A DNA stretch of 64,000 nt from positions 23,674 through 87,673 of the forward strand of contig WGCU01000079.1 of NCBI GenBank assembly GCA_015493635.1, read 5' to 3'. This document shows, piece by piece, positions 1,160 to 29,038 of the stretch; position 1 is the first letter of the stretch, and every line of letters starts with the position of its first letter. The notes beneath the pieces were generated by a model, which was not told the origin of the DNA, did no database searches, and saw only the letters and a program-made list of their open reading frames with translations. A program made the translations under genes and the position numbers. The stretch comes from Spirochaetaceae bacterium. GTDB taxonomy: Bacteria; Spirochaetota; Spirochaetia; B11-G9.

Positions 1160-1196
1160 CTGGTATAAATATAATATAGTTTAGCAATGATGTCAA
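1160..1196 (-). promoter_or_regulatory. sigma70-type promoter for the SHOCT gene pair
   Basis: Minus strand: TTGACA (1195..1190), 16-17 nt spacer, TTATAT/TATATT, then a ~45 nt leader with AAGGAG RBS. Confidence 0.45.
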
Positions 1197-1200
1197 GTAT

Positions 1201-1356
1201 TATTCTCAAACGAGTGAGGGGAGCGGAATAACTTGTTGGTTCCTGGCCTAAGCGAGTGCAGAGAACGAAAGGTTGAAATACCCCGCGGCTTGCCGCGGAA
1301 TAGGCTGCTATAGCGGCCTGAGTCCAGGGTTTACCCTGGGGTATTGAAACCTTTCA
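1201..1356 (-). repeat. Copy 1 of a ~155-nt structured repeat element (candidate ncRNA or MITE-like); inverted relative to copy 2 at 14587..14745
   Basis: Reverse complement aligns to 14587..14745 at about 85% identity over the first ~110 nt and the last ~25 nt. Begins ATGAAAGG, ends CTCACTCGTTTGAGAAT. Three hairpins plus a ~20-bp closing stem. TAA stop in the only ATG frame, so non-coding. Confidence 0.85.
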
Positions 1357-1359
1357 TTG

Positions 1360-1384
1360 TAAAAAATTTAGAACAAGCAGTTCT
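1360..1384 (-). terminator. Rho-independent terminator of the HD-GYP gene
   Basis: Minus strand AGAAC-tgctt-GTTCT hairpin followed by AAATTTTTT. Confidence 0.5.
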
Positions 1385-1398
1385 TTATCCACGGAATA

Positions 1399-3108
1399 CT
1401 AATCACTCATTTCCGCATAGATCTCGTTAAATTTCTGATGATTATCCATGAAAAGCTCGAAAATTTTCTTGCCGAAAATCTTTTCGCCGCTGGTATTGGT
1501 GTAATCGTCCATTCTAATAATTTCAAGTGTTTTTTCATGGGAAAAAGCAGGTTTGTAGTGCCTTTTGCTGCGGAGGGCATCGTATCTGTCGGACAGGGAA
1601 ACAAAAAGCGCTTCCAGGGGAATTTCTTCTCCTGCCAGGGGTTTCAGTGAATGATAGTAGGCAGTTTCTTTGCTGGAGAGAGGTGCAAGGGTTCCGTTTT
1701 CTGTGACAAGACCGGGGTAATCGGTTCCGGCCCATATTTGATGATGGTTTAACGCTATCTGAAAAGCCATCTCCAGCCGGGGTTCGCGGTACGTTGAATC
1801 CATCATACGCTGCAGGATCTGGGCGCCGTAGACCGGGTGCATTTCAAGTTCCAGCCGTTCGGATATTGTCAGCTTTCTTTCAAGTTTAATAAGATAAGGG
1901 ATGGCAATCTTTCCTATATCATGAATCGAGGCAACCTGGCCGATTGACCGGCAGAAAATTTCATCCATTCCGTAAAGCTTCGCGGCCAGGCGTGCAAATG
2001 TATTAACACGGTATATATGCTGTCCGGTCATCTCATCACTGAATTCCGAAGACGCGCAGAGTCCTTCCACGGACTGCATGAATTTTGCATCATTCCTTAT
2101 CGCAAGATCAATAAGGGAATAAGTAACCCATGCGGTATTAACGTACGCCTGAATTGCCAGCTGATCATACCGGGTTAAATCAGTATTCTTGTTAAAGGCG
2201 ATAATTGAAAAATTTCCGGAATGATACACCAGATAGTTTTCTATGGGATTTCCTATAAAGGATTTTACCGATTCATTAAAAGGATTCATTTTCTCAAAAT
2301 CGGTTCGGGAAGGATACAGTGATACTTTTTCACAGACAGCTTCATTTTTTATGCGGGATTTCCAAACTGGCGCCGATGTTGCCTTGCCTATTTCTACTTC
2401 AGCTGAAACGACGGCTCCTGTTGCATATTCCCTTATGTCCTTGTATATTTCCCCATGGAGAATGTCTTCATTTTCAAGCTGGGTGATAAGCACCGCGTTG
2501 AACCCGTGGCCCAACAGCAGCCGGGCAAGCCGTTCGTAGATAGTATTATGTATCACAAGGGAATCAAGTGAGTTGATGATGTCTGTATTGAATCTCTGAA
2601 TATCGTGGATGCTCTGCTCGTACTCGTGGTAGGGTGTTGTATCATTCAGCCAGATGAGGTATCTGTTTTCTGTTTTTTTAAGTTCTACCGTATACCATTT
2701 GTTTGTTACATCAGAAAAGAACGATTTCCCTGCCAGTTGAGAAAGTTCATCAGACTGTCCGATTCCTTCTAAAAAATCATGGATGGTCTTTATGTGGTTT
2801 GAATCACAGAGTTCCTTTGTTTTTCCTGCCATGGCGGTAATAACTCCCCGGGGAGTTGTAATGAAAACAGGATCCTCCCGCTGTTCCGGCAAACTTAAAA
2901 GGAGATCTTTACTTAAATGCATGTATTTTACACTGGCTTTTGTAAATACCTGAACGAGAAAGGGGATGATATAAGGAATTACCGAACTGGTAAGTGATAC
3001 CTGCTCTAAAATATTTATAAAAAAGCCTACAAGAACTGCAAGGAAAAATGTTATGGGAGATTTAATTTCTTTCCATAATAATTTAAGATAGGTTTTTATT
3101 TTATTCAT
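1399..3108 (-). CDS. Membrane-associated HD-GYP domain c-di-GMP phosphodiesterase
   Basis: N-terminal TM segment; C-terminal HD-GYP signature HDIGKIAIP...HH..W.G.GYP. Confidence 0.85.
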   Translation of the reverse strand: MNKIKTYLKLLWKEIKSPITFFLAVLVGFFINILEQVSLTSSVIPYIIPFLVQVFTKASVKYMHLSKDLLLSLPEQREDPVFITTPRGVITAMAGKTKELCDSNHIKTIHDFLEGIGQSDELSQLAGKSFFSDVTNKWYTVELKKTENRYLIWLNDTTPYHEYEQSIHDIQRFNTDIINSLDSLVIHNTIYERLARLLLGHGFNAVLITQLENEDILHGEIYKDIREYATGAVVSAEVEIGKATSAPVWKSRIKNEAVCEKVSLYPSRTDFEKMNPFNESVKSFIGNPIENYLVYHSGNFSIIAFNKNTDLTRYDQLAIQAYVNTAWVTYSLIDLAIRNDAKFMQSVEGLCASSEFSDEMTGQHIYRVNTFARLAAKLYGMDEIFCRSIGQVASIHDIGKIAIPYLIKLERKLTISERLELEMHPVYGAQILQRMMDSTYREPRLEMAFQIALNHHQIWAGTDYPGLVTENGTLAPLSSKETAYYHSLKPLAGEEIPLEALFVSLSDRYDALRSKRHYKPAFSHEKTLEIIRMDDYTNTSGEKIFGKKIFELFMDNHQKFNEIYAEMSD

Positions 3109-3170
3109 GTTTCAATTATGGTATACCAGATATGAAGTGTCAAACATAATGGATTAAAGGAATTTTGTTT

Positions 3171-6100
3171 ATGCGGTTGAAGTTGTCAATCATGATATTC
3201 TGTATGTTTTTGTTACTCTCAATTGCCGTTTCAATGTTGTTTTATCATATTTCGGCTGATGCGGAAATAAAAACCCTGATTGGGGCGGAGCAGGAAATTC
3301 TGTCCTTTGAGAAACTGATTATTGATGAACATCTGAAAAATCTTGAAATGGATGTGAAGTACCTTGCCGTACAGCGGAAGACCATAGCGTTTGTCCAGAG
3401 CCGATACAATCCGGCTTACGACCCTTCTGCTTTGTATATATCGTTCCTTAAACGGAAAGACATCTTTTCTTCTGTACAGATTATTGACTCTTCCGGAAAA
3501 GAAATGCTCCGGATCAACGTTGATAACGGCAGAATTATCAGATTGAAAAGCGGTGCATTACAGGAAAAAGGCAATCGGTACTATTTTCAGGAAATAATGA
3601 ACAGTAATCCCTCTTCCGTGTATGTATCAAATTTTGATTTTGACCGTGATGATGGTAAATCCGTTTTTTTCCCCCGTTCTGTTTTACGGTTAGGAAAGGT
3701 TCTGCTTGATAGAGGAGGAAACAGGCAGGCTGTTATTGTGCTTACCTATCAGGGAGATTCCCTTTTTAAACTCATTAACAATGAGGATTTCTCTCATGCA
3801 GGATTACTTTCATTGATAAACAGCGAAAATAAAATTTTCTCTGAGGAAAAAGGAACAATACAGTTTAATGCCGAACTGGGCAATTTTATCACTTCTTCGG
3901 ACTGGGATGAACTTGATTCCAATCCGGAAGGATATGTTGCCGGTGATTTTGGCATTATTTTTTATAAACATTTTACCATTCCCGGATCCTTTGAAAAGCG
4001 GAAAGCTGCACTTGTTTCCTTTGTAACTCCAGAAAGGCGCGGAATTCTGCTTCATCCGGTTAGAGTGAGGGCTCTGTATATTCTTTTATGTTTAATGGTA
4101 TTGTCACTTATTCCTTCATTGCTGATTACCTCCTATATAGCAAAGAAAAAGGTAGCAAATAATGAGTTGCTGATTCTGAGAGCAGCAGTTTCTCAAAGTG
4201 CCAATTCAATTGTCATAACTGATACGGAAGGGGTCATTAAATTTGTAAACGCTGCTTTTGAAAGACTGACCGGTTATACTTTCAATGAGCTGGAGGGGGT
4301 AAATCCCCGTATTTTAAAAAGCGGACATCAGAATGAGGATTTTTATATTGATCTGTGGCATACCATTAAATCCGGCAGGGTATGGTCCGGAATTTTCCTT
4401 AATAAACGGAAAGATGAAACGAATTACTGGGAGAGAGCAACAATATCACCGGTTTATGACAGGAAAAAGAGGATACGATACTATATTGCTGTAAAAGAGG
4501 ATATTACCGAAAAGAAAAGAATTGAAAATGAATTAAAACGGGAACATGAACAACTGGTACTGGCAAAGAATGATGCTGAATCAGCCAGAGAAGAGGCTGA
4601 AAAAGCTAATCTGTTAAAGAGTGCTTTTCTTGCAAATATCTCACATGAAATTCGTACTCCCATGAATGCGGTTCTTGGATTTTCTCAGATGCTTATGAAG
4701 AATGAAACGGAAGAAAACAAGGCAAAAAAGCTGAAAGTAATTATTGAATCAGGGCAAAATCTGCTTGCTCTGATAAATGATATTCTTGATCTGTCGAAGG
4801 TTGAAGCAGGAGAAGTTGAAGTACATCCATCAGAAATAAGTATCAGGGATGAGACAAAAGAAGTTATGCAGCTTTTGCAGGGGGAAGCGGAGAGGAAGGA
4901 ACTTGAGCTTGATTTTGAGATTGCAGAGGATGTACCTTCTCTTATCCACGGTGATGCTGATCTGATACGGAAAATTCTTGCTAATATTGTATCCAATGCC
5001 ATAAAATTTACTCACCATGGATCAGTCAGCGTTTACATTTCAAGAGACGGAGATTTATTAAATATTTCCATACGTGATACCGGAATAGGAATTCCGGAAA
5101 ATACCCGTGAAACAATATTTGAACCTTTCAAACAGCAGGATTCTTCCTCCAGCAGACAGTACGGAGGTGCCGGATTAGGTCTCGCTTTATCAAAAAGATA
5201 TGCTGAGCTGATGGGAGGTGACATAACTGTTTCAAGTACTCCGGGAATGGGAACACTGTTTGTATGCACTCTTCCCTTCACCGTAGTGCCCGATGATCCC
5301 ACCTGCCCGGAGAACAGTGGTATAACAGAATCTTTGCCTCTTTATCCGGTATGGAAGGACCGGCTGGTAAAAGACGGCAACCTCCTTGTGGATGTTTTAA
5401 ACGAGACTGTTGAAAAATTTCCCGGACAGATGGAAAAACTTTATTCGGCAGTAAAAGGTGGTGATTATACTCTGGCAAAAAGAATAACGCATACCCTTAT
5501 GGGAAGCACAGGCAGTCTGAAAATGTTTGAAGTGCGGGATACACTCAAAAGGATAGATGATTTGCTGCACCCCAAATCTACTCATAAGAGGGAAATACTC
5601 TCTTTTTGTAAAGATCTCCTGCTGCTGTCTGAGAATAGCAGAGATTTATCAAGGGAAGCCGGGAAGCCTGAAAATACAATTAAAGATGGTTCTGGTGCCG
5701 CAAAGGAAGGGCTGCCGTCTTCAAGGATTCTTGCGGCGGATGATGATGAAAGTGTCCGTAATGTTATCGCGGCTTTTCTTAAGTATTCAGGAATGCATGC
5801 TGATTTTGCTGTAAACGGTGAGGATGTTCTTGAAAAACTTGCAAACGGGAGCTATGATATTCTTCTCATTGATTTACAGATGCCGGTGCTTGATGGTATT
5901 GAAACAGTAAAAGAGATCAGGAAAAAAAGTATCTATAATGATCTGTATATCATTGCTGTCACCGGTGACGAATGTGAAAAAATCAAGCTAGACTTTGTAA
6001 AGACGGGATTTGATGACTGCATTTCAAAACCGCTGGATATGGAATCCTTTATTAAAAAGATTCAGGAAAAGAAGTCTGATAATAACGTAACATGGATTAT

Positions 6101-6299
6101 CGAGGATCTTGAACCTTTGGTTAAAGCCTTTAATGCGGATAAGGTAGTCAACGTTGCCCGGGAGATCGAGTCGAAAAGTGACTCTGTATATCTAAAGAGC
6201 ATTTCTTCCAGAATACGGAACATAGCTTCTTCGTATGATTCAAATGCACTGTTGGCACTGATTAAAGAATTGAAGGGAACGTATGGAAATGAGAGATAA
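3171..6299 (+). CDS. Hybrid sensor histidine kinase (periplasmic sensor, PAS, HisKA, HATPase_c, Hpt, REC)
   Basis: Two TM helices flanking a ~270 aa periplasmic domain, PAS/PAC, H-box LANISHEIRTPMNAVLGF, G-boxes, Hpt motif HTLMGSTGSL, receiver ILAADDDESVRN...DLQMP. ATG 3171 after an AAAGGA RBS. Confidence 0.9.
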   Translation: MRLKLSIMIFCMFLLLSIAVSMLFYHISADAEIKTLIGAEQEILSFEKLIIDEHLKNLEMDVKYLAVQRKTIAFVQSRYNPAYDPSALYISFLKRKDIFSSVQIIDSSGKEMLRINVDNGRIIRLKSGALQEKGNRYYFQEIMNSNPSSVYVSNFDFDRDDGKSVFFPRSVLRLGKVLLDRGGNRQAVIVLTYQGDSLFKLINNEDFSHAGLLSLINSENKIFSEEKGTIQFNAELGNFITSSDWDELDSNPEGYVAGDFGIIFYKHFTIPGSFEKRKAALVSFVTPERRGILLHPVRVRALYILLCLMVLSLIPSLLITSYIAKKKVANNELLILRAAVSQSANSIVITDTEGVIKFVNAAFERLTGYTFNELEGVNPRILKSGHQNEDFYIDLWHTIKSGRVWSGIFLNKRKDETNYWERATISPVYDRKKRIRYYIAVKEDITEKKRIENELKREHEQLVLAKNDAESAREEAEKANLLKSAFLANISHEIRTPMNAVLGFSQMLMKNETEENKAKKLKVIIESGQNLLALINDILDLSKVEAGEVEVHPSEISIRDETKEVMQLLQGEAERKELELDFEIAEDVPSLIHGDADLIRKILANIVSNAIKFTHHGSVSVYISRDGDLLNISIRDTGIGIPENTRETIFEPFKQQDSSSSRQYGGAGLGLALSKRYAELMGGDITVSSTPGMGTLFVCTLPFTVVPDDPTCPENSGITESLPLYPVWKDRLVKDGNLLVDVLNETVEKFPGQMEKLYSAVKGGDYTLAKRITHTLMGSTGSLKMFEVRDTLKRIDDLLHPKSTHKREILSFCKDLLLLSENSRDLSREAGKPENTIKDGSGAAKEGLPSSRILAADDDESVRNVIAAFLKYSGMHADFAVNGEDVLEKLANGSYDILLIDLQMPVLDGIETVKEIRKKSIYNDLYIIAVTGDECEKIKLDFVKTGFDDCISKPLDMESFIKKIQEKKSDNNVTWIIEDLEPLVKAFNADKVVNVAREIESKSDSVYLKSISSRIRNIASSYDSNALLALIKELKGTYGNER

Positions 6300-7347
6300 A
6301 GAACGTTTTCGGATACTCATCGTAGATGATAATAATGAGAACAGAAGAATTATTGCCATGATTCTCAGTCCGAACAAAGAGTTCGATCTGACCCTTGTCA
6401 GCAGCGGTTACGCTGCAGTAGAATTTTCACTTAAAACCATCCCGGATCTCATTCTTCTGGATATTATGATGCCGGAAATGGATGGATATGAAGTAGCTAG
6501 AAAATTAAAATCCGATGAGAGGACAAAGGATATCCCTATTCTCTTTGTAACGGCAAATACTGATGATGAAAGTATCTCGAAAGGGTTTGAGAGCGGAGGG
6601 ATTGATTATATTACCAAACCATTCAACCATAATGAACTGCTTGCCCGGGTGAATGTACAGGTCCGGTTAAAAAAATATCACAAGCAGCTTGAGGAACAGA
6701 ATAGGTTGCTGCTTGAGAAGAAATCGCTCCTCACCGCGCTTGTGGATGAGAAGACGAAAAAGATAGCGGACATAACCCGCGCGCTTGTTACCGCATTGGA
6801 GAACGCAAACCAGATGAACGATACCGATACCGGAGAGCATATCAAGCGTGTCAGTGAGTATGCCGGAATTATTGCCCTGGAACGGACTGGTGATATTGAT
6901 TTCTCAAAACAGATCAGACTTTATTCATCCCTTCATGATGTGGGAAAGGTCGGTATTCCTGATATTCTTTTAAAAAAACCGGGGATGTACACTGCTTTGG
7001 AGAGGGAAACGATGAGACAGCATGTATTGTTTGGTGCAAAGATGCTTGATTCTCCCGGAATACCCCGTCTAGCTGTTAATATTGCACGGTATCATCATGA
7101 GAAGTGGGATGGCTCGGGATATCTGGAAGGGCTCTCCGGCAGTGATATTCCTCTGGAGGCACGGATTGTTACGCTTGCGGATATATACGATGCGCTTGGA
7201 ACAAAGAGAACGTATAAAGATGCTTTTCCAGAAGATAAAATTGATGAAATAATTCTGGAGGGTAAGGGGACTTTTTTTGATCCTGAACTTGTCGATCTGT
7301 TCTTTAAAAATAAATCAAAAATGCTTGAAGTAAAGCGAATGCTGTAA
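6283..7347 (+). CDS. Response regulator with REC and HD-GYP domains (RpfG-like)
   Basis: REC (RILIVDDNNENRR...LLDIMMPEMDG) plus HD-GYP (HDVGKVGIP...HHEKWDGSGY). Overlaps the kinase stop by 17 nt. Confidence 0.9.
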   Translation: MEMRDKERFRILIVDDNNENRRIIAMILSPNKEFDLTLVSSGYAAVEFSLKTIPDLILLDIMMPEMDGYEVARKLKSDERTKDIPILFVTANTDDESISKGFESGGIDYITKPFNHNELLARVNVQVRLKKYHKQLEEQNRLLLEKKSLLTALVDEKTKKIADITRALVTALENANQMNDTDTGEHIKRVSEYAGIIALERTGDIDFSKQIRLYSSLHDVGKVGIPDILLKKPGMYTALERETMRQHVLFGAKMLDSPGIPRLAVNIARYHHEKWDGSGYLEGLSGSDIPLEARIVTLADIYDALGTKRTYKDAFPEDKIDEIILEGKGTFFDPELVDLFFKNKSKMLEVKRML

Positions 7348-7353
7348 ACTATT

Positions 7354-9087
7354 TCAAAGAGGAAGAGTAAAATAAAAAATTGAGCCTCCCTCTGGATTAT
7401 CAGTGATACCTGTTTCTCCTCCCAATTTCTCTACAATACGTTTCACAATAGAAAGTCCCAGACCGTTGCCTTCTACTGTTTCCCCGCCAAGCCGGATAAA
7501 GGGTTTAAAAAGTTTCTTTTTTTGATTTTCAGTAAGTCCTTTTCCGTTATCACTAACAAGGTACTGAACACTTTTGTCTTTTATTTTTTCCTGCAATTTT
7601 ACGACAGGCGGTGTTCCTCCATATTTGACAGCGTTGCTGATGTAATTAATCCAGACCTGTTCGATCCAGGGGGCGTAACTGTGTACGGTTGTCCAGCCGT
7701 CAGGTTTTAAAACCAGAGCATTTCTGTCTTTCACTGTAAGAGACAGTCTTTCAAGCACCGTTTCAATGATTGTTTCCATGGATACCGGTCCAAAAGTGAT
7801 ATTTTTTGTTATATCAACTTCTGAAAGAAGAAAAATTTCTTTAATGATGGAATCTATCTTCTTCCCGTTTTGGTGTATATTCTGAATCATAGCTTTTCTT
7901 TCGGTTTCCTGAACGTCTTTTTCTCTTGCCATAAGAATATTGGAAAAACCCAATATAGCTGTAAGCGGGTTTTTTATGTCATGGGAAACCATCCTTGAGA
8001 AAGCTTCAAGTTCTTTATTCTTTTGTTCAAGTTTTTCAGCATACGTTCGTAATTCGGTAATATTACTCATGGTAAGAACATAACCGGCTGCATATTTATT
8101 ATTTTCAAGCAGAGGTGTAATTCTTATACGGTAGTATTCCTGAGGTTGATCTTGTCCGTGTTCAAAGGTAAGCTCGCATTCTGACCCCTGAAGTTTGTCA
8201 AGCGCACTCAGGATTCTGTTGTTGAAAATGGAAGGGAACACGGCATCAGCCGGATACCCCCGGATATCTTCTATGGTGCTGACGGAAAAAACAAGTGCTT
8301 CCCTGTTGAAATCCATAATCTGTTTAAATCTGTCAAGAATAATGAAAGGATCTGTTATGGAATCCATCAGTATTTCTCTGGCAATAGGGGTAACACTGAA
8401 GAAACTATTTTTAAAAACAGCATAGAACAGGGGGATAATACTGATGGATAAGATAAGGGGTGATATGTCAAAATGTTCGGGAAGTATCTTAAGGATATAA
8501 AAAATATTTCCAACCCAGTTTATTATGGAAAATGAAAGCAGCAGCAGTATCTGCCAGCGGAAAACGGGTGAAGTATTCAGGTAACTGTGTAAAAGAATGA
8601 TGACAGCAATAATTAAAAGGCCGTATGAATAAGTAATGTTGATAAAGTACCATAAACCCGGTGAAAAATTCAGTGTAACAAACAATTCTTCCTTTAAAAG
8701 AGAGGGATGTACCCATATCAGATGGTGAATACTGTTTGTCCATGCTGCCAGTGCCGAAAGTGAAGGAATGAAAAAAAACAGAAAGAATTTCGAGGGTTTA
8801 ATCTTTCCGAGCTTGCCTGTATAGGTAAGAACCAGTGAAATCCATGTGGGAGCAATAAAGGGGGCGCCAAGGTATTCAACCTTTGACCAGAATAAAACAT
8901 TCGAGAAGGAATATCCGGTAAGTTCAAAAAAATATGCGCCTGACCATACAAACATCTGAGCCATAAGAGCGGTAAACCAGCCTACACTTGCTGACCGGTG
9001 ATTCAGTAAGCCTTTTAACATCATGGTGCCGGAGAAAAGCGCTGCCAGCAGCACAGAAAGTGTGTAAACGTTCAAACGATTTCCCAT
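7354..9087 (-). CDS. Sensor histidine kinase with N-terminal 7TM receptor-type domain
   Basis: Seven predicted TM helices, PAS-like linker, H-box FSRMVSHDIKNPL, HATPase_c GNGLGLSIVKR. Confidence 0.85.
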   Translation of the reverse strand: MGNRLNVYTLSVLLAALFSGTMMLKGLLNHRSASVGWFTALMAQMFVWSGAYFFELTGYSFSNVLFWSKVEYLGAPFIAPTWISLVLTYTGKLGKIKPSKFFLFFFIPSLSALAAWTNSIHHLIWVHPSLLKEELFVTLNFSPGLWYFINITYSYGLLIIAVIILLHSYLNTSPVFRWQILLLLSFSIINWVGNIFYILKILPEHFDISPLILSISIIPLFYAVFKNSFFSVTPIAREILMDSITDPFIILDRFKQIMDFNREALVFSVSTIEDIRGYPADAVFPSIFNNRILSALDKLQGSECELTFEHGQDQPQEYYRIRITPLLENNKYAAGYVLTMSNITELRTYAEKLEQKNKELEAFSRMVSHDIKNPLTAILGFSNILMAREKDVQETERKAMIQNIHQNGKKIDSIIKEIFLLSEVDITKNITFGPVSMETIIETVLERLSLTVKDRNALVLKPDGWTTVHSYAPWIEQVWINYISNAVKYGGTPPVVKLQEKIKDKSVQYLVSDNGKGLTENQKKKLFKPFIRLGGETVEGNGLGLSIVKRIVEKLGGETGITDNPEGGSIFYFTLPL

Positions 9088-9134
9088 TGATAACCATTAT
9101 CGTACAATATAAATACCTTGTAAAGGACTTTTCA

Positions 9135-9881
9135 TTACAGATCGAGTACACGCAGGGCAACAGGGATAAGCAGCATCATCAATACTTCTCCGGTTTCTAT
9201 CAGACTGCCGTAAGCGTCGCCGGTAAGTCCTCCGAGTATTCTGCTGATAATGAGAGCTGCAATACCAAGAAGCAGAAGTGTTGTCAGACAGATTAAAATT
9301 GCCGGCAGTCCTCCAAGGATAAAGACGATGGTAAGGGTGAAAATTCCGGCAATAACCGGTTTCCATACTCCCATATGCTTCTTGAAGAAGGAACCCATAC
9401 CCTCCTTACGCGCGGAAGGGAACATGACAATAAAGTTCATGGTAATCCAGCGGGCGCTCATCGGTATTAGAATAAGGTAAAACTGGTTTCCCTCTGTCAT
9501 CATCTGGATAATCAGACTCCATTTAAGAAGAACGAGTATAACGAGAGCGAGAACTCCGAATGCTCCTGACCGGCTGTCTTTCATAATTGAAAGTTTCTCT
9601 TCTTTTGTCCTGCCGCCTCCCAGGCCGTCTGCAAGATCCGCCAGCCCGTCAAGATGAAGCCCTCCGGAGATAACAATCCACAGGAGGCAGATGAGAGCAG
9701 CGTTTACTTCGGGAATAAACAACAGGTTAAATAATCTTTCTGCTCCAAACAAAAGGGTGCCGATAAGAAGTCCTGCCACCGGGAAAAAGGCTGCCGAACC
9801 TCCCACCTTTGCCATGTTTTCACCCTGTTTATAGGGAACGGGGATGATGGTTAAAAACCGTAGTGCATAGAGCAGTCCCAT
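9135..9881 (-). CDS. cobS: Adenosylcobinamide-GDP ribazoletransferase (cobalamin synthase)
   Basis: MGLLYALRFLTIIPVP N-terminus and a polytopic ~248 aa CobS-family profile. Confidence 0.8.
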   Translation of the reverse strand: MGLLYALRFLTIIPVPYKQGENMAKVGGSAAFFPVAGLLIGTLLFGAERLFNLLFIPEVNAALICLLWIVISGGLHLDGLADLADGLGGGRTKEEKLSIMKDSRSGAFGVLALVILVLLKWSLIIQMMTEGNQFYLILIPMSARWITMNFIVMFPSARKEGMGSFFKKHMGVWKPVIAGIFTLTIVFILGGLPAILICLTTLLLLGIAALIISRILGGLTGDAYGSLIETGEVLMMLLIPVALRVLDL

Positions 9882-9884
9882 GGT

Positions 9885-10439
9885 TCATCCCTTCAACTTC
9901 TGAGGGATACCGGCAGTCATTAAATAAACGGTATCGGCAGCGGAAGCAATAATCTGGTGGCTTATCCCGGCAATGTCCTGAAAAATGCCGCCGAGCCTTG
10001 TTGGTGCGACAAGGCCTGCTTCAACATGGTTGGAAATAATAATCAAATCAGGTTCAATCTCAACAGCCTGTGCGAGGATTGCTTTTACTTCGGACGTTAC
10101 ACGTCTCAAGGCTTCTTCCGCATCAGGGTTTTCCCCGAGTTCCATCAGAATATTTGTAGAGAGCATTGTCAGGCAGTCAATAATCACCGCCGCTTTATTC
10201 CCGGCAGCTTTACCGAGTATTCCTGAAACCTCCAAAGGTTCTTCTACCGTTATCCATTTTTTCGGCCGGGAGCTGCGGTGGACGGCAATTCTTTTTTTCA
10301 TTCCTTCATCGAGGCCCCATGCTGTTGCTATGTAGGTTACATTCTTTCCTTTTCCCGTTGCTAATTCAGCGGCGAGTTTTTGTGCGAATGATGTTTTCCC
10401 GCTTTTTGTTCCTCCCAGTACAAGGATTACTTTTCCCAT
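9885..10439 (-). CDS. cobU: Adenosylcobinamide kinase / adenosylcobinamide-phosphate guanylyltransferase
   Basis: P-loop MGKVILVLGGTKSGKTSFAQ. Start placed at ATG 10439 (GGAGGA RBS 10 nt upstream, 185 aa) rather than the track's 10571. Confidence 0.75.
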   Translation of the reverse strand: MGKVILVLGGTKSGKTSFAQKLAAELATGKGKNVTYIATAWGLDEGMKKRIAVHRSSRPKKWITVEEPLEVSGILGKAAGNKAAVIIDCLTMLSTNILMELGENPDAEEALRRVTSEVKAILAQAVEIEPDLIIISNHVEAGLVAPTRLGGIFQDIAGISHQIIASAADTVYLMTAGIPQKLKG

Positions 10440-10588
10440 ATTTCCAGTTTCCTCCATTACTACTCTTTCAGGATAATAGATCTTTTCCCCGTATAATACA
10501 AGAAATAGTATTTCTCCATTTTTCAGGACGGTAATGAGTATAGGAATGGTGGGCTGTTGTATGGTATACATGCTGCAGGAGCTGTTAC

Positions 10589-11755
10589 TTGAAATTGAAA
10601 TTCAGTATAAACTATTTTCTGTTTTTTTCTACCATTGCTGTCCTTGCGCCGTATCTTCAGGTACTGCTGAGGAATAAAGGCTTTTCTTCCCCTGATATAG
10701 GGCTTCTGTTGGGGGTTTATGAAATCTCCGGCATTGCGGGCCCTCTTCTTGCGGGTTTGGCTGCTGAGAAAATGGGAAAATACCGGCTCCCCCTGTTGAT
10801 TTTTTCTTTTACTGCCGGAGGGATTCTTTTTCTTCTCGGTATAAGTACAGGGTTTATAAGCGCAGGGATTTCTCTCGTTATATTCGGTCTTTTTTACCGT
10901 CCCATACCGTCACTTCAGGATGCGCTTGCTTCACGTATTCTGCATAATCCGGTAAAAAATTACGGTGGTGTAAGAATATGGGGGAGCATAGGTTTTATAA
11001 CGGTTTCTTTGAGCATTCAGCTTTTCCATTTAATAGATGCATCATCTTCTTTTCAGATTATTACAATCTTTGGTATTTTTTCCACGTTGCTTTTTATAAG
11101 TACAGCAGTGCTGCCGGAAGTTGAAACTATTCGGCCCAATCCGGGACATGTTTCCGGTATCCCCCGTCTTTCAGGAAGATTGACCCTGCCGTTCTATCTG
11201 GCCCTTTTGACTGCTTTTTTTATTAAAATGGGATTAAGCGGATACTATTCCTTTTTTACTTTGTATCTTCAGGATGTCTATTCCTTAAAGGGTGTAAGCG
11301 GGATCTGGGCTCTGGGAGCTATTGCAGAGATACCGATGATTCTCTGGGGAAGCCGGCTGGTAACCCGTTTCAATCCTGCGGCGATGCTTGTTCTTTCAGT
11401 TTTGGGCTCTGCTGCCAGGTTATTCATATATGCCGCGGGTCTGCCCCTTCCCTTTGTATTGGCAGCTCAGTTCCTGCACGCATTTTCATTCGGCCTTATT
11501 CATATTACTGTGATAAGTGTTATAAATCATACGGTCAAACCGCATAGACGGGCATTTGCAATGTCACTCTATGGCGGCATAGGGTTTGGACTTGCGGGAT
11601 TTATCGGGAGCAGTATAAGCGGGTACGTTTTAGGAGGATTCGGATTTAACGTGCTCTATATCTTTTGCGGTGCGGTAACCCTTATTCCTCTGGTACCGGT
11701 TTTAATCTTCCGGAAACGGGCAGAGGAAGAATATTCCGGTATACTGGTTTCGTAA
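10589..11755 (+). CDS. MFS transporter (12 TM)
   Basis: Twelve hydrophobic segments and a GxLaDrxGrkxxl-type loop (AAEKMGKYR). TTG start after an AGGAG RBS. Confidence 0.8.
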   Translation: MKLKFSINYFLFFSTIAVLAPYLQVLLRNKGFSSPDIGLLLGVYEISGIAGPLLAGLAAEKMGKYRLPLLIFSFTAGGILFLLGISTGFISAGISLVIFGLFYRPIPSLQDALASRILHNPVKNYGGVRIWGSIGFITVSLSIQLFHLIDASSSFQIITIFGIFSTLLFISTAVLPEVETIRPNPGHVSGIPRLSGRLTLPFYLALLTAFFIKMGLSGYYSFFTLYLQDVYSLKGVSGIWALGAIAEIPMILWGSRLVTRFNPAAMLVLSVLGSAARLFIYAAGLPLPFVLAAQFLHAFSFGLIHITVISVINHTVKPHRRAFAMSLYGGIGFGLAGFIGSSISGYVLGGFGFNVLYIFCGAVTLIPLVPVLIFRKRAEEEYSGILVS

Positions 11756-11801
11756 TGTATGCTTGATTTAATTGGGAATACGCACTATTCTCTGGTACAC
11801 T

Positions 11802-12161
11802 ATGAAGATTACACGGCTATATGCGGATAGTAACGGCGAATCGCATTTTGAGGATATGGATATCCCTCTGAAAGACGGAGGCGATATTGGCAGACTGTCG
11901 GATTTATTACCGGTATCCGGTATGATACTGAGAGAAAATCCCGGTGATTACAATTACGATTGGCATCCGGCTCCCCGGAAACAGTATATTGTCATGCTGG
12001 AAGGACTGCTGGAAGTTCTGGTGAGTGACGGAGAGCAGCGGGGGTTTGTACCCGGAGATATACTTCTTGTGGAAGATGTTTCGGGGAAGGGGCATAAGTC
12101 ATGGGTCCCTGACGGGAAACCGCGGAAATCACTTTTTATTACCGTTCATGAAGATCTATAA
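11802..12161 (+). CDS. Cupin-domain protein
   Basis: Small beta-barrel-type sequence with conserved G..D.....GE / H..W pattern. Start uncertain (ATG 11802 or TTG 11772). Confidence 0.55.
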   Translation: MKITRLYADSNGESHFEDMDIPLKDGGDIGRLSDLLPVSGMILRENPGDYNYDWHPAPRKQYIVMLEGLLEVLVSDGEQRGFVPGDILLVEDVSGKGHKSWVPDGKPRKSLFITVHEDL

Positions 12162-12179
12162 ACAGGAGAACAGCGGCTT

Positions 12180-12551
12180 ATGTCCAATCCATCACTTTCA
12201 ATAGTATTAAAATACGCGGGAATAGTAGTAATCCTTGTGTTTTTCTATTTTTACTATAAAAGAAAAGCAGGCCGGGAGCAGGAACAGGCTGCGGAAAGAC
12301 GATCTTCCTACATCAATAACCATACAGATCTTTCTGATGAAATTCGTTCGGCTTTGTCTGAAGGAAGAATTCTTGAAGGAATGACAGAAGAGGAGCTGGT
12401 AGCGAGTGTCGGCTTCCCCCTCCGGAGAAACGTTCTGACAATGGAGCCTGCCAGAAGCGAAGAGCTGATCTATCCATCATTTTATGTCCTCCTGCATATG
12501 GGAATTGTCCAGAGCTGGAAGGAACAGAAGAAGCTGTCCGGTCTGCAATAA
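12180..12551 (+). CDS. Small membrane protein, BamE/SmpA-like motif (hypothetical)
   Basis: One TM helix; GMTEEELVASVGFP resembles the BamE GMTkxQV motif. Confidence 0.5.
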   Translation: MSNPSLSIVLKYAGIVVILVFFYFYYKRKAGREQEQAAERRSSYINNHTDLSDEIRSALSEGRILEGMTEEELVASVGFPLRRNVLTMEPARSEELIYPSFYVLLHMGIVQSWKEQKKLSGLQ

Positions 12552-12577
12552 AAAACCGGCAGAGTGTTCTGCCGGCT
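12549..12577 (-). terminator. Rho-independent terminator (convergent genes)
   Basis: CCGGCAGAGTGTTCTGCCGG hairpin with a T-run on the minus strand. Confidence 0.65.
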
Positions 12578-12583
12578 GTACTG

Positions 12584-12994
12584 TCAGTCCAGGTTTACTT
12601 CGCTGTATTCCCCGAAAGAATGGGGCTTCCACCGTACTCTTGCGGGAACCACTTCCACATGGACAAGTTTTGGGTCATGTTCATCTTTAAACAATCCCCG
12701 TGCTCCCGGATGAAGTTCAAGAAGCTTCTTTTTCTTTTCAACCCCTCCGCTTAAATCCGCTTTTCCTGAAACGCGCAGATGATTTCCTTCTTTGTCCACC
12801 CAGCATAGTTCAACTTTCGGATTATCCTTTAATTCTTTTACCTTTCCGCTGATGGCAACCGTGGTACACCAGAACTTGAAATCATCGGTAATAACAAATT
12901 TCATGGGCCGAACCCGCGGCTGGTCCCCGACACTTGTAGCCATCTGGCAGTATCCGGCGCTTTTTACTATTTCCCGTACCTTTTCTTGTGACAT
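12584..12994 (-). CDS. Pyridoxamine 5'-phosphate oxidase-like FMN-binding split-barrel protein
   Basis: PNPOx/general-stress-protein-26 family pattern. 8 nt downstream of the carboxyltransferase gene. Confidence 0.7.
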   Translation of the reverse strand: MSQEKVREIVKSAGYCQMATSVGDQPRVRPMKFVITDDFKFWCTTVAISGKVKELKDNPKVELCWVDKEGNHLRVSGKADLSGGVEKKKKLLELHPGARGLFKDEHDPKLVHVEVVPARVRWKPHSFGEYSEVNLD

Positions 12995-13002
12995 GATTCT
13001 TC

Positions 13003-14553
13003 CTATAACGGCATATTGCCGTGTTTCTTCACGGGCCGTGTTTCTTCTTTTCCCAGGTACATCTCAAGTGATTTCCAGAGGGCCTTGCGTGTTTGTGCCG
13101 GATCAATGACGTCATCAACATAACCGTAACCTGCCGCGATAAAGGGGTTCATTACCTGCACCTTGAACTCTTCAATCTTTTCCTGCCGTTTTGCCGCGGG
13201 GTCTTCTGCAGCTTCAATTTCTTTTCTGAATATAATATTGGCGGCTCCCTCCGCGCCCATTACTGCTATTTCTGCTGCGGGGTAGGCAAGAACCCGGTCG
13301 TACCCAAGGTTTTTTGATGCCATGGCAATAAATGCTCCACCGTATCCTTTTCTTACTATAAGAGCAATTTTTGGTACGGTAGCTTCTGCTATCGCAAAAA
13401 GAAGCTTGGCACCGTGGCGTATAATACCTCCGTGTTCCTGAGCGGTACCCGGCAGAAATCCCGGTACATCCACAAGAGATACAACAGGAATATTAAAAGA
13501 ATCGCAGAACCGGACGAACCGGGCGGCTTTATCAGATGCGTTGATGTCAAGAACGGCAGCCATCATTTTGGGCTGATTCGCCATAATTCCCACGGTGTAT
13601 CCGTTTAATTTTGCAAATCCCACAACGATGTTCTGTGCAAAATCCGCCTGTACTTCAATGAAAGAATCTGCATCAAAAGCGGAATTGATAAGACTGCGGA
13701 TATCATACGGCTTCCTCTGGTTTTCAGGAAGAAGGTCCTTCAGTTCCGGTGTCGGTCTGTCAACAGGATCTGTACATTCAGAAACAGGAGGTTTCTCCTT
13801 GTTGTTTGACGGGAGATAGCTTAAAAGCCGCCTTGTAAAAGCAAGACACTCATCTTCAGATTTAAACCTGAAATGAGCATTACCGCTTTTAAAGGTATGG
13901 GCTCGTGCTCCGCCCAGATCTTCCTGAGAGATTTCTTCACCTGTCACCGCTTTGATAACCTGGGGACCGGTAATGTACATGTTGCTTACTTTTTCCACCA
14001 TCATGATGAAATCGGTAATGGCCGGTGAATACACAGCTCCACCTGCGCAGGGCCCGAGAATTATGGAAATCTGCGGAATTACTCCTGAGCTCAGCGTATT
14101 TGCTCTGAAAATTTTTGCGTATCCGTCCAGGGAAAGTGTCCCTTCCTGAATACGTGCTCCGCCGGAATCATTTATCTGGATGAAGGGCGAACCGGTTTTA
14201 AGGGCATCGATCTGGGCATCAGCTATACGGATAGCGTGCATTTCTCCCAGGGAACCTCCAAGGACGGTAAAATCCTGAGAGGAAAGGTACACCTTGCGGC
14301 CGTTTATTCTGCCGCTTCCGCTGACCACACCGTCACCGGGAAATTTCTTCTTATCCATGCCGAAATCATGTGAACGGGGAACAACATAGGTATTCTGCTC
14401 CGAAAATGAATCTTCATCCAGGAGAGCTCCAATCCGTTCCCTGGCTGTTAATTTCCCCCGCTTGTGCTGTGCTTCTATCCGGGCATCACCGCCCCCTTTC
14501 AGCATCTTTTCTCTTGTTTCTTCAAACCTTGCAAAAGCTTCTTCGTTTGTCAT
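13003..14553 (-). CDS. Acyl-CoA carboxyltransferase (propionyl-CoA carboxylase beta / methylmalonyl-CoA decarboxylase alpha family)
   Basis: 516 aa, full-length match to carboxyltransferase domain proteins (MTNEEAFARFEETREKMLKGGG...). Confidence 0.9.
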   Translation of the reverse strand: MTNEEAFARFEETREKMLKGGGDARIEAQHKRGKLTARERIGALLDEDSFSEQNTYVVPRSHDFGMDKKKFPGDGVVSGSGRINGRKVYLSSQDFTVLGGSLGEMHAIRIADAQIDALKTGSPFIQINDSGGARIQEGTLSLDGYAKIFRANTLSSGVIPQISIILGPCAGGAVYSPAITDFIMMVEKVSNMYITGPQVIKAVTGEEISQEDLGGARAHTFKSGNAHFRFKSEDECLAFTRRLLSYLPSNNKEKPPVSECTDPVDRPTPELKDLLPENQRKPYDIRSLINSAFDADSFIEVQADFAQNIVVGFAKLNGYTVGIMANQPKMMAAVLDINASDKAARFVRFCDSFNIPVVSLVDVPGFLPGTAQEHGGIIRHGAKLLFAIAEATVPKIALIVRKGYGGAFIAMASKNLGYDRVLAYPAAEIAVMGAEGAANIIFRKEIEAAEDPAAKRQEKIEEFKVQVMNPFIAAGYGYVDDVIDPAQTRKALWKSLEMYLGKEETRPVKKHGNMPL

Positions 14554-14586
14554 AGTTCCTCACCTGTACCGTAAAATACAATAAAA

Positions 14587-14745
14587 ATGAAAGGTATCAA
14601 TATCCCAGGGCAAGCCCTGGACCCAGTCCGCTATCGCGGCCTATTCCGCAGCAAGCTGCGGGGTATTTTAACCTTTCGGTCTCTGCACTCGCTTGGAAAC
14701 GGGACAACCACGTTGTCCCGCTCCACTCACTCGTTTGAGAATAAA
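14587..14745 (+). repeat. Copy 2 of the ~155-nt structured repeat element (candidate ncRNA)
   Basis: Same element as 1201..1356 in opposite orientation. Hairpins CCAGGG-caag-CCCUGG, GUCCGC-uauc-GCGGCC and CCGCAG-caag-CUGCGG, with compensatory changes versus copy 1. The track ORF 14587..14787 is not conserved in copy 1. Confidence 0.85.
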
Positions 14746-14929: not shown

Positions 14930-14956
14930 TTGACAGGGGGGAATTTGTGATATAAA
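14930..14956 (+). promoter_or_regulatory. sigma70-type promoter (extended -10) for the GNAT gene
   Basis: TTGACA (14930-14935), 15 nt spacer, TGaTATAAA (14948-14956), then AAGGAG RBS and ATG 14993. Confidence 0.45.
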
Positions 14957-14992
14957 ATGCTTTTTTCCATTAAATTTTTAAGGAGTAGATCT

Positions 14993-26556: not shown

Positions 26557-27420
26557 ATGTCCAGAATTGTTAAATGCGCTCACATTCAGGCTTCCAACCC
26601 GAAACATGATGGCACGGTAGCTGAAATAAAAGAGGCAATGATCCAGAAACATATACCCCTCATTGAGGATGCGGGGAAGAAGGGTGTGCAGATACTGTGT
26701 CTCCAGGAAATATTCTACGGACCGTACTTTTGCGCGGAACAGGATGTTAAGTGGTATCAGTCTGCGGAACCTGTACCCGGACCGACAACAAACCGGATGG
26801 CGGAGTATGCCAAGAAGTACAATATGGTAATGGTTGTACCGGTTTATGAAGAGGCTCAGGCCGGTGTTTACTACAACACGGCAGCGGTTATTGATGCCGA
26901 CGGAACGTATCTTGGAAAAATGAGAAAGATTCAGATTCCTCATACCTGGCCGGGATTCTGGGAGAAGTTTTATTTCAAACCCGGTAATCTGGGCTTTCCG
27001 GTATTTCAGACAGCCTATGCAAAAATCGGCGTTTTTATCTGCTATGACAGGCATTTCCCTGAATCAGCCCGATGCCTGGCACTGAACGGAGCTGAAATTC
27101 TCTTTAATCCGTCTGCAACAACAAAGGGAAAGTCCCAGTATCTGTGGGAACTTGAACAACCTGCTTCCGCTGTTGCGAATGGTGTATTTATCGGTGCAAA
27201 CAACAGGGTAGGCCTTGAAAAACCATGGGAGTTCGGTGAGTTTTACGGTTCAAGTTATTTTGTTGATCCCCGAGGTAAGATACTGGTTAAGGGTTCAGAG
27301 GATAAAACCGAACTGGTAGTAGCTGATCTCGATCTTGATGTTATCCGGGAAGTACGGGATGGATGGCAGTTCTTTAGAGACAGACGGCCTGAAATGTACG
27401 GCGAGATCTGCAAAGCATAA
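26557..27420 (+). CDS. Carbon-nitrogen hydrolase (nitrilase superfamily), putative beta-ureidopropionase / N-carbamoyl amidase
   Basis: 287 aa with an E...K...C catalytic triad context (…ILCLQEIF…, …CYDRHFPE…). Confidence 0.8.
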   Translation: MSRIVKCAHIQASNPKHDGTVAEIKEAMIQKHIPLIEDAGKKGVQILCLQEIFYGPYFCAEQDVKWYQSAEPVPGPTTNRMAEYAKKYNMVMVVPVYEEAQAGVYYNTAAVIDADGTYLGKMRKIQIPHTWPGFWEKFYFKPGNLGFPVFQTAYAKIGVFICYDRHFPESARCLALNGAEILFNPSATTKGKSQYLWELEQPASAVANGVFIGANNRVGLEKPWEFGEFYGSSYFVDPRGKILVKGSEDKTELVVADLDLDVIREVRDGWQFFRDRRPEMYGEICKA

Positions 27421-27496
27421 TTTTTTAGCGCATACTTAAGACAGCAGCGGGTGTGTTACATGGAAGCTGCTGCTTAATAAAAATAACGGAGGAAAT

Positions 27497-29014
27497 ATGA
27501 GCGGAAACGGAAAAAAATCGAGTTGGGTTATATACCCGATTGGTAGCAAGCCTCATATGGGACTTGCCTTTCTTCTGGGATTACAGCAGTACCTTACCAT
27601 GTTTGGTGCTACTGTACTCATCCCCTTTATCGTAGGCGGAGCAATGAAAATGCCGCAGGACCAGCTGGCACTTCTTATCTCTACGATGTTCTTTGTGTCT
27701 GGTATTACAACCCTTCTGCAGCAGTCTCCCCTTGGGAACAGACTGCCGATTGTTCAGGGTGGTACCTTCTCATTTTTAGGGCCTATGTTTGCCATTGTCG
27801 GCATGGTAGCAGCCAAGAAACTTGGATGGCAGGTTATGATTCAGCAGGTTAGTGCTGCAGTCATGTTTGCTTCTTCTTTTGAAATTATACTTGGGTATAC
27901 CGGTCTTATGGGGCTTATCAAACGGGCTATCAGCCCTATAGCTATTGCTCCGACTATTGCAATGATCGGACTTGCACTGTACGGAATCGGAGCTCCCTGG
28001 ATGGCAGGGAACTGGGTTATCTCTCTGACAACCCTTACGGTACTTGTTTTGTATTCGCAGGTTTTCTCCCGGAAATCAAAAGTATTTTTACTTTTTCCGG
28101 TACTGCTTGCCATATTAACAGGATGGATACTGGCTCTCATTGGAACAGCATTGGGATGGATTCCAAAAGGGAATCCCGCCAACCTTGCCGATGGTATTGG
28201 TCTTATAAAAGCAGCTCCCTGGATTTCTTTCAGGCCTATGCTTCCTTTTAAATGGGGATTTCCTCAGCTTAACGCGATAACCCTTGCAGGATCTCTCGGG
28301 ATGCTGGCCGGGTATCTCGGTTCCATGGTTGAGTCCATTGGTGATTACTATGCATGTGCACGAATGGCTGAAGCCCCCGTACCAACAGAAAAAATGATCT
28401 CCAAGGGTCTTGGTGCAGAAGGTCTTGGTTGTTTTATAGCAAGTCTGTTTCAGACTGGTAACGGAACAACTTCCTATTCAGAAAATATCGGTTCAATCGG
28501 TCTTACCCATGTAGCCAGCCGCCGTGTTATCAGGGCTGGTGCTGTAATCATGCTGGTACTTCCTCTGTTCGGTAAGTTCGGTGCTGCTCTTGCAACTCTT
28601 CCTCATCCGGTAATCGGTGCAATGTTTGTCGGTATGTTCGGTCTTATTGCAGCGGTTGGACTTTCCAATCTGCAGTTTGTAAACCTTAACAACTCCCGCA
28701 ACCTTTTTATTGTTGGGCTCTCCTTCTTTGCCGGGTTAAGTTTCCCTGCTCAGTTTAATGCTCATGCAATAAGCTGGGGGACCTCCGGTTCTCTGGTAAA
28801 TGTACTGGGAGCTATTCTTCAGACAATTCTTACCACCGGTATGGCGGTAACCGCAATTGTTGCAATTACCCTTGATAACCTTATTCCAGGGGCAACGAAA
28901 GCGGAGCGAGGGCTGGAGTACTGGGAAAGCGAAGCCAGTGACGAAGCCTGGGAAAAAGCTGAAGCGGAATGGGCCAAGATGGCTATTGGTGAAGAAATTC
29001 CTCTTTCACAGTAA
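27497..29014 (+). CDS. NCS2-family nucleobase:cation symporter (uracil/xanthine permease)
   Basis: 505 aa, about 13 TM, xanthine/uracil permease family signature region. Confidence 0.85.
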   Translation: MSGNGKKSSWVIYPIGSKPHMGLAFLLGLQQYLTMFGATVLIPFIVGGAMKMPQDQLALLISTMFFVSGITTLLQQSPLGNRLPIVQGGTFSFLGPMFAIVGMVAAKKLGWQVMIQQVSAAVMFASSFEIILGYTGLMGLIKRAISPIAIAPTIAMIGLALYGIGAPWMAGNWVISLTTLTVLVLYSQVFSRKSKVFLLFPVLLAILTGWILALIGTALGWIPKGNPANLADGIGLIKAAPWISFRPMLPFKWGFPQLNAITLAGSLGMLAGYLGSMVESIGDYYACARMAEAPVPTEKMISKGLGAEGLGCFIASLFQTGNGTTSYSENIGSIGLTHVASRRVIRAGAVIMLVLPLFGKFGAALATLPHPVIGAMFVGMFGLIAAVGLSNLQFVNLNNSRNLFIVGLSFFAGLSFPAQFNAHAISWGTSGSLVNVLGAILQTILTTGMAVTAIVAITLDNLIPGATKAERGLEYWESEASDEAWEKAEAEWAKMAIGEEIPLSQ

Positions 29015-29038
29015 AAGATTTTCTATTGAAAATATTTG

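Follow-up and report, generated by a model that had tools for sequence, protein, structure and literature searches.

A single inverted repeat pair is present in the 64-kb stretch of Spirochaetaceae DNA analysed here (contig WGCU01000079.1; the whole stretch is called the window below), and its two members are copies of an undescribed, gene-less, structured mobile element of spirochaetes, about 155 bp in length. A repeat search placed the pair at 1200-1358 and 14586-14744 (159 nt, 85% complementary), and alignment with MAFFT gave 86% identity between the copies, with the similarity ending abruptly at both sides; the pair of approximately 85% identical repeats from which the original prediction started is therefore real and ends where that prediction had placed its ends. 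Neither mismatch-tolerant searches with two conserved blocks nor a covariance-model search found a third copy in the window. The two copies lie 13.2 kb apart in mutually inverted orientation, with genes for an HD-GYP protein, histidine kinases, CobS/CobU, an MFS protein and a carboxyltransferase between them. The parts of each copy are as follows, with covariance-model (CM) scores for the complete units.

1202..1355, minus strand: copy 1, GAAAGG...GAGAAT, 154 nt (CM 135 bits)
1356..1358, minus strand: AAT target triplet on the 5' side of copy 1; the same triplet closes the element at 1202-1204
1266..1356, minus strand: 5' domain of copy 1, a four-way junction
1340-1356 with 1266-1282, minus strand: closing stem P1 of copy 1
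1324-1339, 1303-1318 and 1283-1298, minus strand: hairpins H1, H2 and H3 of copy 1
1250..1265, minus strand: conserved C/U-rich linker of copy 1, TTCTCTGCACTCGCTT, predicted to be unpaired
1205..1249, minus strand: 3' domain of copy 1, with long hairpin H4 (1217-1249) and terminal hairpin H5 (1205-1218)
14589..14742, plus strand: copy 2, 154 nt (CM 146 bits)
14586..14588, plus strand: AAT on the 5' side of copy 2
14588..14678, plus strand: 5' domain of copy 2, with P1 formed by 14588-14604 and 14662-14678
14605-14620, 14626-14641 and 14646-14661, plus strand: hairpins H1, H2 and H3 of copy 2
14695..14739, plus strand: 3' domain of copy 2, with H4 (14695-14724) and H5 (14726-14739)

Copy 1 begins 44 nt past the stop codon of the HD-GYP gene (1399) and stops 5 nt short of a strong promoter-like site of the SHOCT gene (TTGACA-17-TATATT, 1196..1168, matching at 11 of 12 positions). 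This predicted promoter had been noticed before, as had a terminator of the HD-GYP gene at 1360-1384; the latter is a weak AGAAC/GTTCT hairpin with a T run and fails a terminator scan. Copy 2 is 35 nt from the start (14553) of the divergent minus-strand carboxyltransferase gene and 190 nt upstream of the promoter-like site (14930..14958) of a GNAT gene, whose product matched no database record. Both copies are oriented toward the next gene, the predicted promoters of these downstream genes come after the element, and promoter and terminator scans detected no such site within either copy. There is no coding capacity either, as originally proposed (a TAA lies in the ATG frame of copy 1 on direct reading). 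The two copies differ by 15% and are therefore not recent: they are older intergenic insertions, upstream of the promoters of the next genes, with no demonstrable host function.

The window is itself a scaffold from a metagenome, and its proteins have their best relatives in Spirochaetales. No orthologous site lacking copy 1 or copy 2 was obtained, the closest relative having lost synteny. The closest HD-GYP homologue (L078, 70% identity) has another gene downstream, and L052 was ruled out as the orthologous site of copy 2, the amidohydrolase there being only ~40% identical. A composite transposon bounded by the two inverted copies was likewise rejected, the 13 kb between them consisting of ordinary chromosomal genes. 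Inverted copies of 159 nt could in principle invert the intervening segment (window 1200-14744) by homologous recombination.

The element is not confined to this contig. When the 17-mer closing both window copies was scanned over one genome per species, most matches were due to chance, and four were true copies with 73-77% identity over the whole unit, all of them in spirochaete metagenome-assembled genomes (MAGs; Guaymas Spirochaetes B11_G9, Spirochaetales binchicken_co9_203 and a Spirochaetaceae MAG). A scan of metagenome contigs with a three-block pattern gave 36 loci, many of which are different contigs of the same samples, sample Ga0307989 alone having at least 12 different contigs with a copy. 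Carriers include the REYS20-1/SAMN12239313 bin and contigs of Ga0307987-89, Ga0075111-122 and Ga0208902. In total, 33 full copies (32 distinct) of 152-160 nt were collected from spirochaete MAGs and metagenomes, at 31 distinct insertion sites, with sharp boundaries and unrelated flanks. PLSDB plasmids, GenBank phages and IMG/VR yielded chance matches or none, and a literature search on spirochaete repeats found no description of the element.

That this unit is a mobile, non-autonomous element is very likely. GAAAGG...GAGAAT was removed in silico from each locus with one AAT kept, and open reading frames (ORFs) were sought across the scar and checked against Pfam. Healed in this way, L054 encodes an MreB of 343 aa in which MreB_Mbl matches without a break over residues 10-336 (E 1e-109), L041 a RibD_C protein, L072 a DUF1499 lipoprotein and L055 a 584-aa glycosidase-like protein. 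Homologues of the healed MreB (343 aa; 95%, 90% and 83% identity) read ...VVLSKSIKTAGD... / ...GDVVLSKSIKTAGDYFD... exactly as the healed gene does, and three contigs encoding the 95% homologue carry the empty site ('...ctctcaaaatcaatcaaaac...' / '...gtcctctcaaaatcaatcaaaactgcc...') between the same flanks as the filled L054 allele. As independent evidence, the L023 locus has an orthologue, L080 (85% identical), in which both flanks of the L023 copy can be aligned but the copy itself is missing. Identical copies of 155-156 nt are also found at different loci (L040 = L043; L059 = L061), which indicates that transposition has been recent in that population. With filled and empty alleles and restored reading frames in hand, the insertion, or mobile repeat, suggested in the original prediction is firmly established. 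The 64-kb window contains no transposase or recombinase, no ORF is conserved within the unit, and a motif screen for DEDD, serine, Y1, Y2 and TnpB signatures in the ORFs of related loci returned none except a RAYT-like gene discussed below; the element is therefore non-autonomous.

Copies lie both between and inside genes, in either orientation, with no orientation rule relative to neighbouring genes. The sense orientation of the L054 copy inside mreB, together with the compact four-way junction fold, might recall a miniature self-splicing or self-cleaving RNA, an intron-like unit whose insertion into genes would thus be harmless. This seems scarcely credible, as the copies at L041, L072, L055 and L068 are antisense to the gene they interrupt (four of the five clear intragenic cases), 155 nt is not divisible by three and the unit includes an in-frame TGA. 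Moreover, wherever the boundaries are placed, a 5' exon with a final U and an element with a final G are never obtained together, the element does not start with GUGYG, and no ribozyme or intron family matches even at E <= 10. The gene interrupted in L054 is the first of three tandem mreB paralogues (343, 342 and 344 aa) at L074:2303-5446; the loss of one of them may be tolerated, and this redundancy may explain why the L054 insertion is.

All copies share the boundaries (A)AT/GAAAGG ... TTTGAG AAT/ (slashes mark the limits of the unit), and the 31 independent insertion sites define what is inserted as GAAAGG...GAGAAT, with an AAT at either side. The triplet before GAAAGG is AAT at 30 of the 31 sites and TAT at the other; the last triplet of the element is AAT at 29 and TAT at two, and these two copies have AAT as their 5' flank. 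Around the insertion point, position -5 is A in 21/31, position +4 is C, A or G but never T, +5 is A in 31/31 and +6 is a purine in 29/31, the flanks beyond ~5 nt being unrelated and the target thus informative at only ~8 positions. The preferred target, A-N-A-A-T/N-A-R, resembles the joined element ends, A-G-A-A-T/G-A-A. The mreB empty site has a single AAT and makes clear that the bases following it are part of the target. One AAT at the empty site and two after insertion fit a target duplication of 3 bp (or of 2 bp, AT), and fit equally well insertion 3' of an AAT by an element that itself ends in AAT. At L061, two head-to-tail units share one AAT (...TTTGAGAATGAAAGG...). There are no terminal inverted repeats (TIRs), the consensus 5' end GAAAGGTATCAT being dissimilar to the reverse complement of the 3' end, ATTCTCAAACGAG. 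Of the alternative label first given to the repeat, that of a miniature inverted-repeat transposable element (MITE), the small size, the lack of coding capacity, the many copies and the unrelated flanks hold, and the inverted termini do not.

The fold that accompanied this label is the minimum-free-energy structure of both window copies: three hairpins (CCAGGG..CCCUGG, GGCCGC..GCAGCC and CCGCGG..CCGCGG) with a closing stem, which is bipartite (~8+6 bp). Its energy is -55.6 kcal/mol in copy 1 and -61.7 kcal/mol in copy 2 (z = -4.5 and -4.9), and since none of 200 dinucleotide shuffles was as stable for either copy, the fold is real and not a product of chance. The 3' third of the repeat forms two more conserved hairpins, H4 and H5, which the original prediction did not include.

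To follow these helices through the family, a covariance model was made from 30 copies with a hand-drawn structure, and the 33 full copies were realigned to it. In the resulting alignment 91.5% of pair cells hold standard pairs, and in 18 of the 51 pairs both partners have changed; column shuffles give 8.8 +/- 1.4 such pairs (0/500 reach 18), and the covariation score is 0.161 versus 0.081. An alignment fitted to the model favours structure, a bias kept in view by slid controls in which partners were moved by 1-3 columns; these had 3-7 pairs changed on both sides. The changes are concentrated in H2 (6 of its 8 pairs) and H4 (7 of 14), with three more in H1 and two in H3. P1 and H5 are conserved without any both-side change, partly because the search patterns forced ATGAAAGG, GGGGTAT and TCGTTTGAG and so fixed those bases; covariation in P1 and H5 is thus outside what this alignment can show. 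Selection on structure, argued at first from two copies, is therefore confirmed with many more, compensatory substitutions preserving the fold.

The evidence is mixed as to which strand carries the structure and in which nucleic acid. G-U cells number 115 on the 'sense' strand, versus 66 A-C cells (G-U on the other strand); the mean RNA folding energy is -63.7 kcal/mol for sense versus -65.7 kcal/mol for antisense; with DNA parameters the fold still forms, and the antisense energy is the lower one in 25 of 32 copies. The fold is real, and energies and G-U counts favour neither RNA over single-stranded DNA nor one strand over the other.

These results bear directly on the idea of a novel non-coding RNA read from the minus strand of copy 1, the first interpretation offered for this repeat. 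Under it, the copies would be paralogous genes for structured small RNAs beneficial to the host, or cis-regulatory leader or 3'-untranslated-region elements. Such a host RNA would account for the covariation in H1-H4, the conserved junction and loop bases and several conserved G-U positions on the 'sense' strand, as well as for the orientation of both window copies toward the next gene and for persistence over several spirochaete lineages at 73-77% identity. It is nevertheless highly improbable. The limits of conservation are exactly the limits of the unit, which leaves no shared promoter or terminator; copies interrupt ORFs, mostly antisense to the gene; presence or absence is polymorphic with precise boundaries; and the antisense strand folds as well or better. 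An orientation shared with the flanking genes, true of copy 1, is not a rule of the family, and this, along with predicted promoters that lie downstream of the unit, led us to reject a cis-regulatory leader. A known RNA family was rejected as well, no match to Rfam 15 reaching the gathering score anywhere in the window and the sole match of copy 1 at E <= 10 being a chance one to SAM_alpha (opposite strand, 13 bits). The element is a parasitic repeat, not a gene for a regulatory RNA.

How such a repeat might move can be considered from its structure and its ends. The conserved fold (the four-way junction and the two 3' hairpins) would be the cis-acting feature recognised by an enzyme encoded in trans. 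Given hairpins that compensatory changes have preserved, and ends without inverted repeats, movement as a folded single strand appears the most likely. The enzyme would be an HUH endonuclease (Y1, IS200/IS605- or RAYT-like) working by 'peel and paste', cutting just after two AAT triplets, the one flanking the left end and the one closing the element, with reinsertion 3' of another AAT. The arrangement of the ends follows an IS200/IS605-like logic, in that a fixed motif precedes the left end on its 5' side, the right end finishes with a related motif, hairpins lie near both ends and a true duplication is not required, and gene-less derivatives of IS200/IS605 elements, the PATEs, are known (PMC10055086, PMC3119063). 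We therefore put forward, tentatively and with less than even confidence, a gene-less non-autonomous mobile element that passes through a folded single-strand intermediate and depends on an HUH enzyme in trans; the single-strand/HUH route taken by itself is possible on this analysis, though graded slightly lower still.

Several observations weigh against this proposal. About 340 kb of related loci yielded neither a cognate transposase nor an autonomous element that shares these ends. IS608-type elements have similar hairpins on the left and on the right, whereas those nearest the two ends of the spirochaete element are dissimilar (H1, CCAGGG..CCCTGG, versus H4/H5). IS200/IS605 targeting needs no constraint 3' of the insertion point, yet the bases there are constrained (+4 not T, +5 A, +6 purine), which fits a recombinase reading both sides. 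Finally, the two window copies are oppositely oriented only 13 kb apart, which a strict lagging-strand bias does not predict unless the origin or terminus, or a later inversion, lies between them.

An HUH-type gene does occur near one copy. L023:5101-5586 (+), 1.9 kb from the L023 copy, is a RAYT-like Y1 gene (Pfam Y1_Tnp; NCBIfam NF047646 REP_Tyr_transpos, 81.5 bits) with homologues at L080:5001-5486, L083:5001-5501 and L084:5001-5522 (161-173 aa). The RAYT-like genes of all four loci are flanked by an unrelated G-rich motif, GGGGWCRGAGG, and this 11-mer (GGGGTCAGAGG, GGGGACAGAGG or GGGACGGAGG) is found in 2-3 direct copies upstream of the gene and sometimes downstream. Given a flanking motif of its own, and synteny in L080 where the copy is absent, the L023 RAYT is not counted as the partner enzyme, a further point against the HUH proposal. 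The RAYT-like gene has the same genomic position in two related genomes, and many of its homologues are on very short contigs, as multi-copy genes tend to be.

The constraint on both flanks invites a second mechanism, in which the unit would be excised as a circle and its junction, GAG-AAT-GAAAGG, would recombine via the shared AT/AAT core with sites that resemble it, A-N-AAT-N-A-A. An IS110/IS1111-type DEDD or an IS607-type serine transposase would be supplied in trans, and, were it of the IS110 kind, the element's own folded transcript could act as bridge or seek RNA, analogous to MITEPpu9 (the ssr9 module on ISPpu9). This would explain why AAT (or at least AT) is present at both junctions of the copies, and why the constrained target A-[not C]-A-A-T-[not T]-A-R matches the junction A-G-A-A-T-G-A-A throughout; the head-to-tail pair of L061 with its single shared AAT has the look of a circle junction, or of insertion into the junction motif. 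Nearly the entire unit is a covarying structure, and excision of small-RNA modules as circles, with spread by means of an IS110 transposase, has been documented (PMC12288879). An internal ACCUUUCGUUCUC of copy 1 is complementary to the joined ends, and on direct reading the linker and the 3' strand of P1 are together the reverse complement of these ends. However, of the 13 nt of this complementarity only 3 exceed what P1 and the repeated AAT imply, and as those 3 nt never vary, covariation lends no support to pairing between linker and joined ends; a 'splint' pairing of the linker with the 3' end was discarded on the same count. The short and degenerate target, with flanks unrelated beyond ~5 nt, also differs from the long specific targets of IS110 elements, and no DEDD or serine recombinase motif was recognised in the window or related loci. 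Nor is there a junction promoter (the TTGAGA of the 3' end has no -10 at a workable distance on direct reading) or a promoter detectable by scans in the window copies, and the two strands fold equally well. On balance, the circle route seems rather unlikely.

A more speculative and quite improbable version would make this gene-less transposon almost entirely the scaffold of a guide-type RNA, that is, a trans-dependent RNA-guided element with an unusually short guide. The RNA would serve either an IS110-like recombinase, as bridge or seek RNA, or a TnpB or IscB nuclease, as omega RNA, encoded elsewhere in the genome; the four-way junction would then be an RNA rather than a DNA recognition structure, and the linker and junction bases would read the joined ends (GAGAAT/GAAAGG) and the target (ANAAT/NAA).

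Not all relatives of the element have the architecture of the window copies. L051 and L014 have the same ends with other hairpins replacing H1; in L043 the 5' domain leads into another kind of hairpin module; in L061 and L042 the 3' domain is preceded by hairpin modules of ~66 nt in tandem; and L041 has a solo 3' domain. From these mosaics, the 3' 60 nt (H4-H5) and the first ten bases are the constant parts, and the 3' domain of copy 1 is the part common to mosaic variants elsewhere. The second module of ~66 nt (TTACGCAAAACTCC...AACGGGAAACCGTT...GGGAGTTTCGC) forms hairpins over its full length and is found in tandem, attached to the 5' or the 3' domain of the element; contigs break inside its arrays. 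It was located at the following positions.

L061:14466-14617, minus strand: ~66-nt module
L042:5400-5503, minus strand: ~66-nt module
L043:1330-1399, plus strand: ~66-nt module
L060:4057-4101, plus strand: ~66-nt module
L041:384-425, plus strand: ~66-nt module

The element belongs to a broad known kind, that of small structured non-autonomous interspersed repeats, akin to BOX, REPIN and PATE. The BOX elements of pneumococci are modular, with the organisation boxA-boxB(n)-boxC (PMC3049150), and those of S. pneumoniae and S. suis share with the spirochaete element an interspersed, gene-less unit of ~100-200+ nt that is almost entirely base-paired (PMC3049150). Both have fixed 5' and 3' modules around variable internal hairpin modules (here the four-way junction, 0 to n ~66-nt modules and H4-H5), both lie between and within genes, and for both the mobilising enzyme is uncertain. 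The BOX-like modularity is one of architecture and not of sequence: the two are unrelated in sequence and come from different host phyla, the ends of BOX are inverted repeats like those of insertion sequences (IS), and the spirochaete element has no such termini and instead a defined AAT target and a four-way junction.

PATEs (PMC3119063, PMC10055086) resemble it in other respects, having no TIRs, no need of target duplication, hairpins near the ends and a short fixed motif 5' of the left end, with a related motif closing the right end. They are mobilised in trans and may carry structured RNA (omega RNA), which we also count among the likenesses. Unlike PATEs, the spirochaete element has dissimilar left and right hairpins and a constrained 3' flank, is much shorter than those described, with the whole unit a single structure, and matches neither the IS605-orfB nor the HEARO model of Rfam. 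Above all, there is no IS200/IS605 element with matching ends in the ~340 kb of related loci, and for this reason it cannot be filed as a PATE.

With the REPINs and BIMEs moved by RAYT, it has in common that it is short, highly structured, multi-copy, gene-less and mosaic, with long persistence in lineages, and the presumed single-strand HUH mechanism, with a single-copy enzyme acting in trans, is a further likeness (PMC3116915). It is not a REPIN, since its multi-branch fold is not an inverted pair of REP sequences forming one hairpin and since it is not confined to intergenic DNA, copies being found inside genes (mreB, RibD_C, DUF1499, glycosidase-like). It also departs from REP-RAYT systems in that the RAYT-like gene near one copy is flanked by GGGGWCRGAGG, a motif foreign to the element.

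MITEPpu9/ssr9 of ISPpu9 (IS110 family) is a small module, essentially a structured RNA gene, that excises and spreads by means of a transposase supplied in trans, and like the spirochaete element it has the same short sequence at both junctions (PMC12288879). ISPpu9 targets REP sequences specifically, whereas the flanks of the spirochaete element are diverse; unlike MITEPpu9, the latter has no promoter in the unit and no IS110 transposase in the window or related loci. Classical MITEs (Correia/NEMIS, RUP, Nezha) are comparable in being small, multi-copy and non-autonomous, in their AT-rich target, stable secondary structure and disruption of genes. They possess terminal inverted repeats that match those of DDE-type IS and generate true target duplications (e.g. 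TA). The spirochaete element is without inverted termini and is therefore not a classical MITE.

To our knowledge, the small repeats of the poorly studied spirochaete phylum are essentially undescribed. The present element adds a well-delimited, recently active, TIR-less structured mini-element to the few bacterial repeats whose mobility has been shown by filled and empty alleles. Its exact boundaries, short AAT target and conserved fold, with no transposase nearby, make it a tractable system for asking how BOX-, REPIN- and PATE-like repeats move in trans and whether it is as DNA or as RNA that their structure works. With the covariance model, annotators can mask the units and recognise interrupted genes, such as one of three tandem mreB paralogues, and the model should prevent the units from being mistaken for riboswitches or small-RNA genes.

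The surroundings of some other copies are of separate interest. At L045:2110-2400 (+), a copy is bracketed by two stretches that resemble each other (CGGACTCT(T)ACCG(Y)CGGT...GGAATT), pointing to another repeat or a structured RNA there. At L065:3260-3321, a copy abuts the start of a candidate tRNA gene on the opposite strand (GGCCGATGGTGTAATGGTAGCACTGCAGATTCTGG...). L006:1869-1890 (-) has no more than the final ~22 nt of the element (TCTCTCACTCGTTTGAGAATCA), directly upstream of an Fe-alcohol-dehydrogenase-like gene on the opposite strand; this may be a truncated relic, or else a chance match that happens to run on for 5 nt.

Two further regions of the window, both outside the interval between the copies, were noted. 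An ordinary purine/oxamate catabolism cluster at 26557-38855 helps to characterise the host and comprises a xanthine/uracil permease, three xanthine-dehydrogenase subunits, AllH, AllG and a CoA-ligase-like protein. A mercuric-reductase-like gene at 39380-40800 (-), with HMA, Pyr_redox_2 and Pyr_redox_dim domains, adjoins a merR-like gene at 38915-39355 (-). It has at least one frameshift and in-frame stops, one in GMSCIHCE*TV and another replacing the first Cys of the C-terminal ...LS*CAG motif, and looks like a gene that is decaying or that contains assembly errors.

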